This document shows, piece after piece, positions 1,989 through 46,456 of a stretch of DNA of 64,000 nucleotides (positions are counted from its first letter, which is position 1; each line of letters opens with the position of its first letter). The translations under genes were made by a program, and so were the position numbers. The notes below the pieces were generated by a model. That model did not search any database. It saw nothing but the letters and a program-made list of their open reading frames with translations, and was not told the origin of the DNA. Location: positions 3,812 through 67,811 of the IMG/VR virus record IMGVR_UViG_3300042516_001464. One strand, given 5' to 3'. The DNA is from a virus.

Positions 1989-2836
1989 ATAATTATTTAT
2001 CACTAAATTTAGTAAACGGAAGACTTAGTAGATTTTCTGGTGGAGGTAGACCAACATTCACCTTGAATGAACTAAATGATGTTCAAATTTACCTCCTTGA
2101 TTATCCAATTCCAGTAACATATCCAGTCGAAGCATTGGGTGATGCATTCTCAGAAATAACAACAAGAGATTTTAATAACCAAGTTTTAACAATAAATGTA
2201 GGCGCAAGAGGTCAAAATAAAATAATATCAACAACTTCCTTTTTTAACCTTCCTACAAATATTATATCATCAACAACATCTAATGTTTTTTATATTAATC
2301 TTGCTGAAGGCACAAGTACAATAAGGGCAAATTATGATGTTAAATTTTCCGTTTCACCAACTCCAATTATTGGATCTTTGTTTTCATTTACAGCAACATT
2401 TGGATATGGTGGAAGTATATTCAGTAATACAAGTGCTGTGTTCTCATTTGAAAATACAATATCTGAAATAAAAAACATTCTTTCAACTGTAATCTACGAC
2501 ACTGCGGTTAGTTTTTACACTAATTATGATAGCGGCGGTAGTTTTATCAACGAATTTACAACAAATCTTTATCAAACATCAGATTATTCTTTTTCTTTTA
2601 TTGGAAACCACACTATGTCGTTTGTTACTTTACCTCCAACAGTATCTTTTAATGTAACATTAAATAATGTAAGTGCGTCTTCAAATCCAGGCAAGTATGG
2701 CAGTCTTGATTTTTCATCATTAAACTGGAACTCCGTTATAGGAACAAAAAAAGAAGTTCCAATCTGGATGGAAGCAATGATAGACAATGAAACAATAGCT
2801 CAAGGAAACGCTATTTTGTGTCGGAAGATGACTTGA
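1985..2836 (+). CDS. Hypothetical virion protein (AT-rich, S/T/N-rich)
   Basis: 283-aa ORF coupled to the upstream gene by ATGA overlap. Confidence 0.6.
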   Translation: MNNYLSLNLVNGRLSRFSGGGRPTFTLNELNDVQIYLLDYPIPVTYPVEALGDAFSEITTRDFNNQVLTINVGARGQNKIISTTSFFNLPTNIISSTTSNVFYINLAEGTSTIRANYDVKFSVSPTPIIGSLFSFTATFGYGGSIFSNTSAVFSFENTISEIKNILSTVIYDTAVSFYTNYDSGGSFINEFTTNLYQTSDYSFSFIGNHTMSFVTLPPTVSFNVTLNNVSASSNPGKYGSLDFSSLNWNSVIGTKKEVPIWMEAMIDNETIAQGNAILCRKMT

Positions 2837-2837
2837 T

Positions 2838-3131
<294 letters not shown>

Positions 3132-3174: not shown

Positions 3175-4152
3175 ATGAGAATAACACTTGGAGAAGCGAG
3201 GCAACAACTTTACGCCTCAATAGTTCCATCGATTGATAACCAATCGAACATAGATCGCTTTAACTCGTATCTTAATCTTGCACAAGAAAGATTGATTAAT
3301 AGTGGAAAGTGGAACGGAACTATTCTTCCTGTTAGATTTTATTCTCCGAGTGGAATGATTACACTGCCAAGGCGATTTACTTCAGCCCTTGCTGCAAAGT
3401 GGAGCAAAGATTCCGGGAATGGAAACAACGCCACTGGTCCAATTAAGATTCGCAATGGATGGTTTACATACCTTACTCCTATCTCTGACTTGTGGACAGC
3501 TTCCTATTGGCCGAGGTATGGATATAACGAGACATTCTTTGATGACCTTGGTGATGGATTTGTTACATTTGCGAATCCAACATATGAAACATTTACTCTA
3601 AAGGTTGAGATTGAAAATGCAGCTGATGCAAATAAACAAGTTGTTATTAAAGGTAAGGACGAAAACAACAATGATGTGACAATTAATGTTGTGTTGAATA
3701 ATCCAAGCACAACTACAACTCAAGTTTTTAAGAGTATAAACTTCCTTCAAAAATCAATTACAAATGGTGCAGTCAATCTTTATGCTGTAAGTGGAGCTAA
3801 TGAGGAGCAAATCGGCGCATACGAGACAACGGAGACGACTGTGAGCTATCATCGATATGCAGTTCCAAACGAACCTACCATTGATCATCTTGATGTTCTT
3901 TGCAAGATTAGGTTTGTTCCATGCGTATATGATACTGACGAAGTTATTGTTTCTAATCTTGGCGCGTTGAAGAATATGCTTACATCTCTACGATTTGAAG
4001 ATGAGGCAGACTTAGAAAGATCAGAAATGTTTTTTATGAAAGCATTGCAACTACTAAACGGAGAGAGTCGAGAAATCCGTGGTGGTTCGCAATGGAAACT
4101 AAACATTGATAGAGCATCAATGCAATTTGAAAACCTTTGGCCGGGAAGATAA
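3175..4152 (+). CDS. Putative head-tail adaptor / tail tubular protein
   Basis: Helical N- and C-termini (LNLAQERL...ALQLLNGE) resembling podovirus adaptors; tail-module context. Confidence 0.45.
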   Translation: MRITLGEARQQLYASIVPSIDNQSNIDRFNSYLNLAQERLINSGKWNGTILPVRFYSPSGMITLPRRFTSALAAKWSKDSGNGNNATGPIKIRNGWFTYLTPISDLWTASYWPRYGYNETFFDDLGDGFVTFANPTYETFTLKVEIENAADANKQVVIKGKDENNNDVTINVVLNNPSTTTTQVFKSINFLQKSITNGAVNLYAVSGANEEQIGAYETTETTVSYHRYAVPNEPTIDHLDVLCKIRFVPCVYDTDEVIVSNLGALKNMLTSLRFEDEADLERSEMFFMKALQLLNGESREIRGGSQWKLNIDRASMQFENLWPGR

Positions 4153-42529: not shown

Positions 42530-42928
42530 TCAATCTTTCTTCAAGAGTTCCTCAATGATCTTTTCCGTTACTTCATGCAGCGATGGATAACATAGAACAT
42601 GGAACGATGCGCCATGCTTCTTGATAAATGCCGTCCAATCTTTATGCTCTTCTTTAGTGAGCTTGATCTTCTGAGGTCTTGCCTCGCCTGCCTTACGGAC
42701 GATTTCCATCAGCTTGTCTTGCTTCTTGTGCGCGGCAGCTTGGATTTCAGCCCGGTCTGGATAGACGCACTGCCGGATGCTGGTGCAGCCTGGTGCTACC
42801 TTGACGAGCCAGTAGCCTTCATCAAGCCCGTGGTATGCGTTAGGATCATTGATTGGGATATATCGCTTCCCGACCTTGCGGTAGAGTATATCTGACTCTA
42901 CTTGTGCTATGCGTTGTTGTGCGTTCAT
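42530..42928 (-). CDS. Hypothetical protein
   Basis: LYRKVGKRYIP; start just after a leftward promoter. Confidence 0.6.
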   Translation of the reverse strand: MNAQQRIAQVESDILYRKVGKRYIPINDPNAYHGLDEGYWLVKVAPGCTSIRQCVYPDRAEIQAAAHKKQDKLMEIVRKAGEARPQKIKLTKEEHKDWTAFIKKHGASFHVLCYPSLHEVTEKIIEELLKKD

Positions 42929-42937
42929 GCAAAAAAT

Positions 42938-42969
42938 ATCTTGCACTAAATACAGTGTTGCGTCAATAT
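42938..42969. promoter_or_regulatory. Overlapping divergent sigma70 promoters
   Basis: Minus TTGACG-N17-CAAGAT and plus TTGCAC-N17-CAATAT, each ending 9 nt before an ATG. Confidence 0.55.
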
Positions 42970-42978
42970 CTGATTTCC

Positions 42979-43152
42979 ATGAAACACACATTCATTCACC
43001 TTGGCTGCGAGGTTAAGATCGCAGGTAACGATGTCACAATTTATCGGAAAGACGGAGGTATTGATAAGATGAAATTAAAAGTAATCTCAGATCAAGACAC
43101 CGCTGAAGAGTTCATCAAGGACTACATCACGCTCACTATTGTTAAACAATAA
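42979..43152 (+). CDS. Small hypothetical protein
   Basis: MKHTFIHLGCEV..., after the promoter. Confidence 0.5.
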   Translation: MKHTFIHLGCEVKIAGNDVTIYRKDGGIDKMKLKVISDQDTAEEFIKDYITLTIVKQ

Positions 43153-43199
43153 ACCAGAAAAACGATTGACAAATGACAATTGTTTTTTAGGCTTATTGC

Positions 43200-43622
43200 A
43201 TGAGTTGCATACCAGACATTCAAACCACAAACGAAATGTATAATCTATATCTAAAAGGATATAGTATTTCTCAAGTTGGAAAAGCGTTTCAAGTATCAAG
43301 GCAAACCGTATTCCAGAGATTTAAAAGAGCGGGAATGGAACTTCGATCAAAAGCGCTTTTGCCATTCATGGTTTTTAATGGGAAAAAATATACATTAAGA
43401 AATAATGGATATTTAGCCTGCACAGGTGGAGTTCGCTCTTCAATGCATCGCGATGTTTGGTGTTTTCACAATGGGGAAATACCAGAAAATTATGACATTC
43501 ATCACATCAATGGAAACAAAACAGACAATCGTTTAGAGAATCTACAAATTTTACCTAAATCAGAGCATACAAAACTGCACGGATTTAGGGGAAACCAACA
43601 CACAAAAAATAGAAACAAATGA
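43200..43622 (+). CDS. HNH homing endonuclease with an N-terminal HTH
   Basis: YSISQVGKAFQVSRQTV; MHRDVW...IHHINGNKTDNRLENL...EHTKLH. Confidence 0.85.
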   Translation: MSCIPDIQTTNEMYNLYLKGYSISQVGKAFQVSRQTVFQRFKRAGMELRSKALLPFMVFNGKKYTLRNNGYLACTGGVRSSMHRDVWCFHNGEIPENYDIHHINGNKTDNRLENLQILPKSEHTKLHGFRGNQHTKNRNK

Positions 43623-45913
43623 AACCATGCACAATAATAATACCATCGTCCCTTACATCAGTCTTTGTTCCGGCTATGAAGGCATCGGAATTGGACTCCA
43701 CCGCTGTATCCGAAATCTTCGCTGCATCTCTTACTGCGAGAGGGAATCATTCGCCATCGCAAACTTGGTTGCGAAAATGGAAAAAGGATTACTGGACTCA
43801 GCTCCTGTTTTCACAGATGTCACAAATTTCCCATGGGGAGACTTCACTCCATACATGGCTAAAGGAATTTTGTCCTTTGGATGGCCGTGTCAACCAGTCT
43901 CAAGCGCAGGAAAGCGAAAAGCAACAGAAGATGAGCGATGGTTATTCGACATCATCGCAGATGGAATTTCAATTATGCAACCCGGAATGCTCTTCGCAGA
44001 AAATGTCGAAGGACTCTTATCAGCAAAAATGCCAGACGGATCAAGCGTCTTCGGACACTGCATCGAGAGATTGGAGAAGCTACATTATAAAGTTGAGGCA
44101 GGAATATTCAGTGCGAGCGAAACAGGCGCTCCGCACCAACGCAAAAGAATCTTTATCCTGGCCTACCGCGAGGAGCAGGGATTGGAAGGACTCAGGGAAC
44201 TTGAGTCAAACTTCCTATGGAATGACATTGGGCAGGATGGCGCAGCAGAATGCGAATTGGCCTACGCCAGCGGTGATGGATACAACGGGAGGCAGCTACA
44301 AGACGGAATGGGTAGATGGAAGGGCGGTCAGCTACCACAATCACAAAGAGGAGAATCCGGTAGCTTACGGGGCCAAACTTTCGGATGCAGTGGCGAATTG
44401 GCCTACAGCGAGAACATCGGATTGCAAGAATCCATCAATACAGAGAATGAAAGTTGGATCGGATGGTGGAAACAAAATCCAGCTGCGGGAAGCAGTAGCG
44501 AAGGAGGAGATGAGTTGTTCCAATACGGAGGAATTAGTGTGGTTAACCCCAACGACAACACAAATACAGAGGCGGGATATGCAGAAGCGGATAGACTATC
44601 GGGAGAGCATAGGCCGGAAGTATGTGCCGGGTTCATTGGAGGAACAGATGCAGCATCACTCAAACGAACCAGTGAATTGGCCGACACCTACAACAGCGGA
44701 AGCTGGGAAGATATCAAACCAGCCGAATTACGGACAGATATGCTTGAGCAATCATCCGGCAATTGTTGGAACTCCCAATCGTCCGAAGGGGATCAAAGAT
44801 GGCCTTCTCGCCCAGGACAAACACAATACGCATGGGAACCACCCAGAACTATTGGAAAAATGGAAAATGGTTCCTGGTTGGGGCGACAAATATCAAGTCA
44901 GCAATCACGGAAGAATGCAGTCCAAGGCGAGTGGGGATTGGAGAGAGATGACCTTAACAATCAAGGACACGGGATATCTGAATGCGAGCTTGAGGCACGA
45001 AGGAAAACAGAAAAAAGTAACGATCCACATTCTGGTTGCGATGCTGTTTCTTGGGGAAAGGCCAAGTGGATTGGTGATAAATCACATAGACGGCAACAAG
45101 TTGAACAACTGCATTTGGAATCTGGAATATGTGACAGCAGCAGAGAACAACCGCCATGCTCAAATGATGGGTTTGAATTGCACGAAAGGAGAATCCAATC
45201 CAATGGCGAAGCTCAATACAGACCAGGTAGAGGAGATACTACAATCAACGGAATCGCAGTTAGTAATAGCGAAGCGGATGAATGTATGCCAACAAACCAT
45301 ATCGTTGATTCGTTCTGGAAAAAGGTGGAAAGGTTTGAAGCAAGAGTCATGGCCGACACCAACGATGCAGGACGGCAAGCAGGGAGGGATAACTCCATCT
45401 CAGATGGTGGAAGGAGCTGGTCACACGGGACTGCTTCACATTGCAGCAATAAAGCAAGAGCAATGGAGGACACCATCTGTAGCGGAAGCAAAGAATCAAA
45501 ATACATCAACACAAGTTTATCTTCAGAACCAAGTCGGAGCTACTCCGAAACAATGGGCGACTCCTCAAGCGAGCGACCACGTGGAGGGACGCAGGACGGA
45601 CTTGGACAGCAATCAGAAATGTTTGGGGAGAGACATGAAGAAGTGGGCGACTCCGAGTGCGTTCGACTTCAAGGATGGGGAGAGCAGGGAACAATGGGAG
45701 AAGAGAGCTGCATTCCAAGCGGAGAAGGGCGTGAGTCTTCAACTTCCGCTCAAGAGCCAATCGATACAGGAGGCGGGAACGATGAGTCCCAGTTCAGCAA
45801 AATTGAATGCGAGATGGGTCGAAACTCTCATGTCGCTTCCAATGGGATGGGTATGCCCGTCATGTCCAGCCTCTGTGATTCAGAACTGGAAGAAATTTAT
45901 GAGTGGATGGTGA
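43619..45913 (+). CDS. C5 methyltransferase beta frame (WPTP repeats, motif IX-like) with an embedded NUMOD4-HNH endonuclease
   Basis: Nine W(P/L/R/A)T(P/A) repeats; LNARWVETLMSLPMGW; YQVSNHGR...HIDGNKLNN...ENNRH. Confidence 0.75.
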   Translation: MKPCTIIIPSSLTSVFVPAMKASELDSTAVSEIFAASLTARGNHSPSQTWLRKWKKDYWTQLLFSQMSQISHGETSLHTWLKEFCPLDGRVNQSQAQESEKQQKMSDGYSTSSQMEFQLCNPECSSQKMSKDSYQQKCQTDQASSDTASRDWRSYIIKLRQEYSVRAKQALRTNAKESLSWPTARSRDWKDSGNLSQTSYGMTLGRMAQQNANWPTPAVMDTTGGSYKTEWVDGRAVSYHNHKEENPVAYGAKLSDAVANWPTARTSDCKNPSIQRMKVGSDGGNKIQLREAVAKEEMSCSNTEELVWLTPTTTQIQRRDMQKRIDYRESIGRKYVPGSLEEQMQHHSNEPVNWPTPTTAEAGKISNQPNYGQICLSNHPAIVGTPNRPKGIKDGLLAQDKHNTHGNHPELLEKWKMVPGWGDKYQVSNHGRMQSKASGDWREMTLTIKDTGYLNASLRHEGKQKKVTIHILVAMLFLGERPSGLVINHIDGNKLNNCIWNLEYVTAAENNRHAQMMGLNCTKGESNPMAKLNTDQVEEILQSTESQLVIAKRMNVCQQTISLIRSGKRWKGLKQESWPTPTMQDGKQGGITPSQMVEGAGHTGLLHIAAIKQEQWRTPSVAEAKNQNTSTQVYLQNQVGATPKQWATPQASDHVEGRRTDLDSNQKCLGRDMKKWATPSAFDFKDGESREQWEKRAAFQAEKGVSLQLPLKSQSIQEAGTMSPSSAKLNARWVETLMSLPMGWVCPSCPASVIQNWKKFMSGW

Positions 45914-46014
45914 AGTGTGAGAATCGCACGGATGAATTACGCTTGCTGGGTAATGGCGTGGTTCCGGCAACAGCAACGAAAGCATTCATAACTTTATTCA
46001 ACAAACTCAAATGA
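43627..46014 (+). CDS. C5 cytosine DNA methyltransferase, alpha frame (motifs I, IV, VI, VIII, X)
   Basis: SLCSGYEG, GWPCQPVS, AENVEGL, APHQRKRIFI and C-terminal LRLLGNGVVP. Confidence 0.85.
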   Translation: MHNNNTIVPYISLCSGYEGIGIGLHRCIRNLRCISYCERESFAIANLVAKMEKGLLDSAPVFTDVTNFPWGDFTPYMAKGILSFGWPCQPVSSAGKRKATEDERWLFDIIADGISIMQPGMLFAENVEGLLSAKMPDGSSVFGHCIERLEKLHYKVEAGIFSASETGAPHQRKRIFILAYREEQGLEGLRELESNFLWNDIGQDGAAECELAYASGDGYNGRQLQDGMGRWKGGQLPQSQRGESGSLRGQTFGCSGELAYSENIGLQESINTENESWIGWWKQNPAAGSSSEGGDELFQYGGISVVNPNDNTNTEAGYAEADRLSGEHRPEVCAGFIGGTDAASLKRTSELADTYNSGSWEDIKPAELRTDMLEQSSGNCWNSQSSEGDQRWPSRPGQTQYAWEPPRTIGKMENGSWLGRQISSQQSRKNAVQGEWGLERDDLNNQGHGISECELEARRKTEKSNDPHSGCDAVSWGKAKWIGDKSHRRQQVEQLHLESGICDSSREQPPCSNDGFELHERRIQSNGEAQYRPGRGDTTINGIAVSNSEADECMPTNHIVDSFWKKVERFEARVMADTNDAGRQAGRDNSISDGGRSWSHGTASHCSNKARAMEDTICSGSKESKYINTSLSSEPSRSYSETMGDSSSERPRGGTQDGLGQQSEMFGERHEEVGDSECVRLQGWGEQGTMGEESCIPSGEGRESSTSAQEPIDTGGGNDESQFSKIECEMGRNSHVASNGMGMPVMSSLCDSELEEIYEWMVKCENRTDELRLLGNGVVPATATKAFITLFNKLK
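44858..45340 (+). mobile_element. NUMOD4-HNH-HTH homing endonuclease inserted in frame in the beta ORF
   Basis: WKMVPGWGDKYQVSNHGR, HILVAMLFLG, INHIDGNKLNN, GESNPMAKL...TISLIRSGKRW. Confidence 0.75.
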
Positions 46015-46193
46015 CAAACGAACAGAAGGTTTGGCTTGCACTCCAGTCTGCAAAGACTGATATTATTCTTGCGATTTCTGATTACAAAAAACCAGATCGC
46101 GCAGCTTGCATGGATTGGGTAGACCAAGCCACAGCAAAGTTAATGGAGGTTTACGCAATACTGCGAGACGACAAAGGAGGATACGAGCTTTAA
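46011..46193 (+). CDS. Hypothetical protein
   Basis: ATGA-coupled to the alpha MTase frame. Confidence 0.55.
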   Translation: MTNEQKVWLALQSAKTDIILAISDYKKPDRAACMDWVDQATAKLMEVYAILRDDKGGYEL

Positions 46194-46456
46194 TATTTCG
46201 GAGCAATAATGTGGTAATGTGGCGGGTGTTCAAACCTTGGCGGGTCTGCATCTGGTAAACAAGTAGCCATTCCCGTAACCACATAAAACGGGAACTCCAA
46301 AGTATCGTTAAACAATACTTGAACACTACAATCGCTTAGTGTATTGTCCAAATTTGCTGTAGAGATACAGTCATTCGCGTGAGAACGAATGCAACGCAAG
46401 ATTAAATTGAAACCATATATATCGACTACCTCTCGTAGATCATTCTCACCCGTCAT
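46190..46456 (-). CDS. Hypothetical protein
   Basis: Fills a gap between plus-strand genes. Confidence 0.4.
   Translation of the reverse strand: MTGENDLREVVDIYGFNLILRCIRSHANDCISTANLDNTLSDCSVQVLFNDTLEFPFYVVTGMATCLPDADPPRFEHPPHYHIIAPKY

Follow-up and report, generated by a model that had tools for sequence, protein, structure and literature searches.

An I-HmuI-type endonuclease insert without stop codons in either frame of an overlapping phage methyltransferase gene

We analysed a methyltransferase locus within a 64,000-nucleotide (nt) stretch of viral DNA, hereafter the window, which was taken from the 67.8-kb IMG/VR record IMGVR_UViG_3300042516_001464, a metagenome-derived virus record with direct terminal repeats. 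At this locus two long open reading frames (ORFs), here called alpha and beta, lie on the same strand (plus, as for all features below), overlap almost completely and are one base out of step. A 498-nt insert of 166 codons at 44849 to 45346 encodes an I-HmuI-type homing endonuclease in the beta frame, and it is free of stop codons in both beta and alpha. The window sequence recurs in lake-water metagenomes, where all sampled words of the stretch were present in 10 runs.

The locus and the inserted endonuclease domain

The beta ORF (43619 to 45913, 764 codons) consists of an N-terminal part overlapping the catalytic motifs of alpha, nine WPTP-like modules, the HNH insert and, near its end, an element at residues 729-744 (45803 to 45850) that resembles motif IX of a C5 methyltransferase. 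Beta residues 67-275 matched PHROG 1008, 'DNA methyltransferase'. The alpha ORF (43627 to 46014, 795 codons) carries the C5-methyltransferase motifs I-VIII in residues 11-187, then approximately 550 hydrophilic residues, and a C-terminus with the sequence RLLGNGVVP (45940 to 45966), similar to motif X, which is reached solely when alpha is read through the insert. Over 43619-46014 there was no internal stop in alpha or in beta, and there were 53 in the third frame. Alpha residues 11-187 matched PF00145 (Pfam, E = 1.2e-27) at profile positions 4-168 of 324 only, and the hydrophilic middle had no family match. Pfam placed neither a recognition domain nor motifs IX-X in the alpha polypeptide; the motif-IX-like element sits in beta. 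When short C-terminal fragments of alpha and beta and whole short family members were searched with Pfam, motifs IX and X were again not recognised, so these two names are provisional and lean on the complex model described below. The motif-IX-like element is nearly invariant in alignments A4 and A6, and the motif-X-like element is invariant or nearly so in alignment A5 and belongs to high-confidence C-terminal helices in the fold predicted for a short family member.

The insert contains a NUMOD4 motif (beta residues 413-459, 44855 to 44995; Pfam PF07463, 33.9 bits against a cut-off of 23.4, E = 3.8e-8) and an HNH_3 catalytic core (residues 469-512, 45023 to 45154; PF13392, 47.7 bits against 24.8, E = 1.2e-12), followed by a probable C-terminal helix-turn-helix (residues 543-567, 45245 to 45319). 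The last of these gave a sub-threshold match to CENP-B_N (12.8 bits against 21.2) and aligned with the C-termini of free homologs. The histidine and asparagine residues of the HNH core are conserved, with H85, N97 and N106 as invariant columns of alignment A3 (the insert and free homologs). The closest solved relative was I-HmuI (PDB 1u3e, E = 2.3e-13 over insert residues 4-123). Moreover, the insert could be aligned from end to end with free-standing HNH proteins of 170-190 residues from Escherichia, Staphylococcus, Alicyclobacillus and Bacillus phages, whose M-E-x-W-K start corresponds to L-L-E-K-W-K in the insert and whose last residues match its end.

The edges of the insert were set by laying the HNH-less alleles L005-L009 and L025 beside the window. 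In beta the junctions fall on a codon boundary, in alpha they follow the first base of a codon, and the translation shows the insert fused in frame between WPTP-like modules 5 and 6 of beta. The first-pass annotation, made from the sequence of the window without database searches, had put a complete NUMOD4-HNH-helix-turn-helix domain between these two repeats at 44858-45340. The place and the first two domains were correct, the helix-turn-helix was recovered below threshold only, and the edges proved to be slightly wider. On the 3' side the insert is followed by the W-P-T-P of the next module. On the 5' side it adjoins a conserved dual-coded element at 44800 to 44847, which reads WPSRPG..WEPPR in alpha (complete alpha-frame reading WPSRPGQTQYAWEPPR). 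This element was found in the alpha frame of all eight relatives displayed, is nearly invariant in the 20-row alignment A5 and falls within the alpha-beta interface predicted by the complex model; it is likely to be a landmark or target of the endonuclease.

The insert opens with CTA TTG and has no clear start and no stop of its own, and the beta frame meets no stop before 45911. A promoter and terminator scan of 42900-46300 gave 5 sites compared to a shuffled expectation of 4.9, none of them inside the insert. An insert of the same length, 498 nt, was found at the same place in two other assemblies, L002 (IMG/VR) and L184 (a Joint Genome Institute metagenome contig).

Stop codons in the alpha frame of the insert

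In the three alleles, namely the window, L002 and L184, the alpha frame of the insert contained no stop codon, and the third frame contained 19, 17 and 17, respectively. Free homologs of the endonuclease served for comparison. None of 84 (from 4 GenBank phages and 80 IMG/VR loci) was stop-free in the alpha-equivalent frame, and the 55 that were at least 140 codons long had 3-37 stops in it. The median for the free homologs was approximately 16 stops. This frame was the most stop-rich of the three in the free homologs, with a mean of 0.113 stops per codon. A second set of 65 homologs of at least 100 codons, drawn from 69 loci and sharing one contig with the first set, included none with one stop or fewer. 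When the order of the codons in the insert was shuffled, 0 of 20,000 shuffles were stop-free in alpha (mean 9.2 stops, minimum 2). The open alpha frame through the insert is thus beyond chance. The first-pass annotation had already noted that alpha is stop-free here, which now extends to the whole gene, and had estimated a probability of roughly 5e-4 by chance for uniform codons, a figure that both homolog sets and the shuffles show to be conservative.

With this offset between the frames, a stop in alpha arises only where a T-ending beta codon precedes a codon that begins with AA, AG or GA. Within the insert, T-ending codons occupied 0 of 53 such risk positions compared to 29 of 112 positions elsewhere (Fisher p = 4e-6), and over beta 44159-45850 they occupied 0 of 171 risk positions compared to 104 of 392 elsewhere (p = 4e-19). 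Base composition is not the cause of the open frame, since the third frame has 17-19 stops and the free HNH gene immediately upstream of beta (43200-43622) has 9 stops in the equivalent frame. The alpha reading of the insert is hydrophilic, with a grand average of hydropathy of -1.1 and 23% hydrophobic residues, and it resembles the rest of the alpha middle.

Pairwise comparison of the insert among the three alleles gave 22, 15 and 17 nucleotide differences. The ratios of silent to changing differences were 20:2, 11:4 and 14:3 when read in beta, and 2:20, 3:12 and 1:16 for the same pairs when read in alpha. The differences are thus mostly silent in beta and changing in alpha, which shows that the nuclease is kept as a protein and alpha is kept only open. 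Together, the free homologs, none of them stop-free, and the avoidance of T at risk positions support the earlier proposal that selection holds alpha continuous through the insert. A stop-purged insert in turn suggests that both readings of the gene are needed.

Alleles with and without the endonuclease

Among the three alleles, identity was 95.6-97.0% in the insert, compared to 86-89% over the initial 540 nt of the gene, 63-78% over the 60 nt on the 5' side of the insert and 30-48% in the upstream modules. Two further copies of the nuclease were known as proteins only, and the contigs encoding them were not found in the viral-contig scans. In P0080 the nuclease had 89% amino-acid identity and lay between different modules on either side. 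In P0091 a 57.5%-identical copy followed the same conserved element and preceded a W-A-T-P module, and this divergent copy suggests a long association of the nuclease lineage with the site. A search of IMG/VR with the beta alignment covered 80 loci of 152 confirmed candidates, which were mostly shorter alleles without the nuclease. The nuclease was rare in every set, with 1 other distinct contig among the 80 viral loci, 1 of 82 beta-like proteins and 2 of 112 representatives, and a metagenome scan for the locus yielded a single one, L184. An HNH pattern match in protein P0013 proved to be a false positive. HNH-less alleles, which the first-pass annotation had named as the means of mapping the insertion site, were L005-L009, L025, L169 and L171, and they place the insertion just 3' of the conserved dual-coded element. 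Two of them, L025 (a 67,805-bp contig) and L171 (a 68,965-bp contig), are from sister phages that have the same neighbouring genes without the insert.

Given its sporadic occurrence and its near-identity in otherwise divergent alleles, the insert most likely remains a selfish element that homes and would be made as part of beta, and the pattern suits an element that is still spreading better than a domain fixed long ago. We therefore consider it probable that the insert is a selfish I-HmuI-type homing endonuclease adapted to a dual-coding methyltransferase gene. As such it would have nuclease activity and would move by homing. The first-pass annotation had offered a selfish insert tolerated by both frames as one of two readings, and this one fits best with the sporadic occurrence, the 95.6-97% identity of the insert compared to 30-89% in its flanks, and the sister phages that lack it.

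The other reading was a domesticated nuclease, in which the HNH unit is a working domain of beta, for instance one that nicks or grips DNA and thereby equips the methylase for restriction-like or anti-competitor action. Such a role would agree with a unit that has neither start nor stop and is always translationally fused, with the strong protein constraint in beta (20:2, 11:4 and 14:3), and with the long residence implied by its adaptation to the alpha frame and by the P0091 copy at the same kind of site. However, the nuclease is sporadic, sister phages manage without it, and it is more alike between alleles than the surrounding host gene, which is a mark of recent spread. We thus regard domestication as unlikely. 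A one-locus restriction-modification-like system, as had been suggested, found no support, since nearly all family members lack the nuclease; unlike in fused nuclease-methylase restriction enzymes, the nuclease is not constant in the family (HNH_3 in 2 of 112 and 1 of 82).

Further variants were seen at and around the insertion site. Four DNA runs from lakes were compared at the level of contigs, and several alleles of the region 44200-46000 were seen in runs X13 and X14. One contig had kept the nuclease and carried a 141-nt in-frame deletion upstream of it, at 44658-44798. Two others diverged from the window at 44837 and 44847 and rejoined it at 45607; the short sides measured 34-39 letters with a likeness below 95%, so that they hint only weakly at alleles without the HNH in the same lakes. 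A 12%-divergent nuclease piece of 226 nt from lake contigs had an alpha frame open over 75 codons with 19 of its 27 differences applied, a partial and weak observation. Among HNH-less alleles, P0004, P0005 and P0007 had at this site a different insertion of approximately 60 residues, preceded by the ..THGN.. element and followed by the next W-P/A-T-P module, and P0006 lacked it; no family was recognised in this insertion. Modules were also shuffled and duplicated between alleles. The post-nuclease module recurred as the first module in L002 (3001-5115), and the WPSRP..WEPPR element was present twice in L025 and L005 (about 3764-4054).

A family of two-frame genes and the proposed explanation

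A census was made of the window and 86 loci, of which 78 were evaluable, meaning that motif-I and motif-X-like patterns were found in one frame. Alpha was stop-free between these two patterns in 73 of the 78. Beta was stop-free up to the motif-IX-like element in 73 as well; the pattern was not found in three loci and there was one stop in two. Both frames were clean in 68 of 78, and the third frame had 6-50 stops (median 15). Across the window, L001-L082, L169-L172 and L184, the start codons of alpha and beta were 2-10 nt apart in most loci, frequently as the twin start ATGTGG, with ATG in beta and GTG in alpha, and the two ORFs overlapped by 0.9-2.3 kb. The GenBank phage C75C1 has the same two-frame layout, with only the alpha frame annotated, as a DNA methyltransferase. 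A megablast of 43100-46200 against GenBank phages gave no match, and tblastn with the last 188 residues of beta against the same phages gave one weak record only, Phage C72C1. Judging from these searches, the family appears to be almost absent from cultured phages. A profile of the C-terminal half of beta reached 17,750 protein clusters at E <= 0.001. Among the best 150 of these, 112 were checked, and a methylase family stood in the same frame as the beta-like part in 1 of the 112 representatives and in 0 of the 82 beta-like proteins.

Individual members departed from the usual layout. In L058 (3001-4224) beta extends approximately 100 codons past the motif-IX-like element into W-A-T-P modules and alpha ends first, the reverse of the usual order. 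The beta-like protein P0120 continues past the motif-IX-like element into a PD-(D/E)XK nuclease domain (residues 310-521, E = 2.7e-7), and one other beta-like representative has an AP2 domain. In P0113 the motif-X-like end shares a frame with the motif-IX-like element.

The fold predicted for the alpha of L010, a short family member, matched M.HhaI (E = 5.5e-11) and M.HaeIII over the N-terminal 175-185 residues. A model of the alpha of a short member in complex with the C-terminal half of its beta gave an interface score (ipSAE) of 0.89, compared to 0.01 for the best of three controls, although C5 methyltransferases have been solved as single chains and the score may thus reflect likeness to a known fold rather than binding. 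This mark was reached by 58 of 80 solved complexes and by 2 of 110 mismatched pairs. Three runs of the complex model shared at least 71% of contacts, and the pLDDT (predicted local distance difference test) of the partner was at least 64. In the modelled interface, the WPSRP..WEPPR element and the C-terminal helices of alpha face the first module and the motif-IX-like element of beta, the latter being predicted to pack on the alpha C-terminus.

We propose that a homing-endonuclease gene, with NUMOD4, HNH and probably helix-turn-helix parts, lost its own start and stop and became fused in frame into beta. In this explanation alpha would supply the catalytic domain with motifs I-VIII and a far-downstream C-terminal piece, consisting of WPSRP..WEPPR and the motif-X-like end, and beta would supply a modular DNA-recognition part and the motif-IX-like element. 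Both would be translated from start codons a few bases apart and would probably be assembled into one enzyme. Alpha could reach its C-terminal piece only by straight reading through the middle of beta, and because it must cross this region, an insert would persist only if its length is a multiple of three and it is stop-free in both frames. The endonuclease complies by codon choice alone, having no T-ending beta codon before a codon that starts with AA, AG or GA, and in alpha it would simply add 166 hydrophilic linker residues. It sits at a module boundary, with the best-conserved part of the variable region directly on its 5' side. Taking the gene and the insert together, we lean towards a broader reading. 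The gene may belong to a large class of C5 methyltransferase genes in phages, so far undescribed, in which 0.9 to 2.3 kb of DNA is translated in two frames from twin starts, the full-length products being complementary halves of one enzyme, and an endonuclease with an evolved 'two-frame transparency' may home on the doubly constrained and unusually conserved WPSRP..WEPPR stretch.

Several points weigh against this explanation. Translation of the two long ORFs is a prediction, and the explanation would still have to account for how a free endonuclease gene with approximately 15-20 stops in the alpha frame came to settle in such a gene. The absence of an own start, stop and promoter would suit a permanently fused, possibly co-opted domain equally well. 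The census loci were not de-duplicated and included several near-identical contigs. Exceptions were also found within the family. In L071, L072, L079 and L082, several stops interrupt alpha shortly past motif VIII (about 3540-3900 in each), after which it reopens with the conserved WPARPG..LGG..RLLGNGVVP end kept. Because the C-terminal part is kept in these loci although alpha is broken, read-through is not the sole route to it. One stop was found in alpha of L055, and one each in beta of L074 and L075. Finally, the gene calls P0231, P0113, P0040 and P0168 join an alpha N-terminus of 55-100 residues to the beta reading; they may be indel errors or real frame-swapped variants.

These four broken loci and four joined gene calls would also agree with an alpha that is not translated across the insert at all. 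The enzyme would then be made by ribosomal frameshifts, from alpha to beta and back to alpha, or with a separate C-terminal alpha piece, and the missing stops would come from composition or from a constraint on the RNA. Composition is insufficient, however, given that the third frame holds 17-19 stops in the same 498 nt and that T is avoided only at would-be alpha stops. Frameshifting would leave the openness of the alpha middle and of the beta N-terminus without a reason, whereas both are open in 68 of 78 loci, and the openness of the beta N-terminus is improbable by codon shuffling (mean 5.9 stops, P = 0.0002). We consider it improbable that alpha goes unread across the insert.

Removal of the insert, as a group I or II intron or as an intein, is very unlikely. 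I-HmuI-type endonucleases are typically intron-encoded, and the insert adjoins a highly conserved stretch, a frequent position for introns and inteins. However, a permissive Rfam scan (E up to 1) of 42800-46400 returned four sub-threshold small-RNA matches and no intron family, no Hint or intein domain was found with Pfam at E up to 0.1, and the residues at the junctions, an L where the insert begins and E followed by S where it ends, are unlike those of inteins, in agreement with the first reading of the sequence, which had seen neither intein ends nor an intron core. In addition, a spliced element would need no double open frame. An artefact of assembly or sequencing, for example a chimeric contig or false long ORFs made by indels, might be feared in a metagenome-derived record but is refuted as far as the present data allow and has a negligible probability, since the same insert and two-frame layout were found in the independent assemblies L002 and L184 and in contigs of other runs, 10 runs contain all sampled words of the stretch, and the two-frame layout recurs in dozens of divergent loci.

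If a selfish endonuclease has indeed adapted to a gene read in two frames, the stop-purged insert is a natural experiment for selection on the read-through of a non-conserved frame. A foreign gene within a suspected overlapping gene brings a built-in control, in that free relatives have approximately 16 stops in the second frame and the inserted copies have none in three alleles. As comparative evidence that a long and weakly conserved second frame must stay open, this is unusually clean. It also indicates a low cost of adaptation, with each alpha stop avoidable by a silent change in beta, and it points to a widespread gene family whose members are at present annotated as a methyltransferase in one frame and as hypothetical in the other.

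The insert resembles I-HmuI, a nicking homing endonuclease of the HNH type from Bacillus phage SPO1, in its NUMOD4-like N-terminus, its HNH core and its length, which is close to the 174-residue chain of 1u3e. I-HmuI is made as a separate protein from a group I intron within a DNA polymerase gene, whereas the present copy is a translational fusion within another protein, with no intron. In contrast to usual NUMOD4 and HNH_3 endonucleases, it has neither a reading frame of its own nor an intron or intein as its home. Free-standing phage homing endonucleases, such as mobE in the nrd genes of T-even phages, have their own start and stop and split the host gene in two. As in these cases, an HNH endonuclease gene of a phage lies within or next to a conserved gene, but the present insert leaves both host frames continuous. 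With regard to the host gene, two-subunit C5 methyltransferases of the M.AquI type have overlapping genes, and in M.AquI the split lies between motifs VIII and IX and the overlap is short. The present family would likewise be a C5 methyltransferase made from two polypeptides, but with an overlap of 0.9-2.3 kb, and with motifs I-VIII and the motif-X-like end in alpha and the recognition modules and the motif-IX-like element in beta.

The closest published case is the ShiLan domain, an HNH endonuclease hidden out of frame in DNA methylase genes of actinophages (Arsenault, Gosselin and Gogarten 2025, PMC11855218). The two cases share an insert within a phage methylase gene whose length is a multiple of three, a methylase frame kept stop-free with the nuclease in another frame, an insertion that adjoins conserved residues, no intein or intron signature, and a disjunct distribution that suggests homing. 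The ShiLan HNH differs in having its own GTG start, TAA stop and zinc-finger flanks, whereas the insert described here has no stop, runs in frame into a second long ORF and is of the NUMOD4 / I-HmuI type. Its host gene is also two-frame over the whole length, so that the insert is stop-free in two frames. The 'hidden HNH in methylase gene' arrangement would thereby be extended to a case with two host frames to respect. In the literature searched, from which supplementary tables were excluded, no description of a two-frame phage cytosine methyltransferase was found.

A second, free-standing HNH gene directly precedes the locus, as had been noted from the sequence. It lies at 43200 to 43622 and encodes 140 amino acids with HTH_7 and HNH_3 domains (Pfam), and its TGA stop overlaps the ATG of beta (ATGA). 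This gene is sporadic as well. It was absent upstream of beta in L169, L171 and L184, and it was found in the same place in 7 other contigs with 74-98% amino-acid identity, namely L002, L003, L005-L008 and L025, where it occupies 2582-3001 and has the same ATGA overlap with beta.

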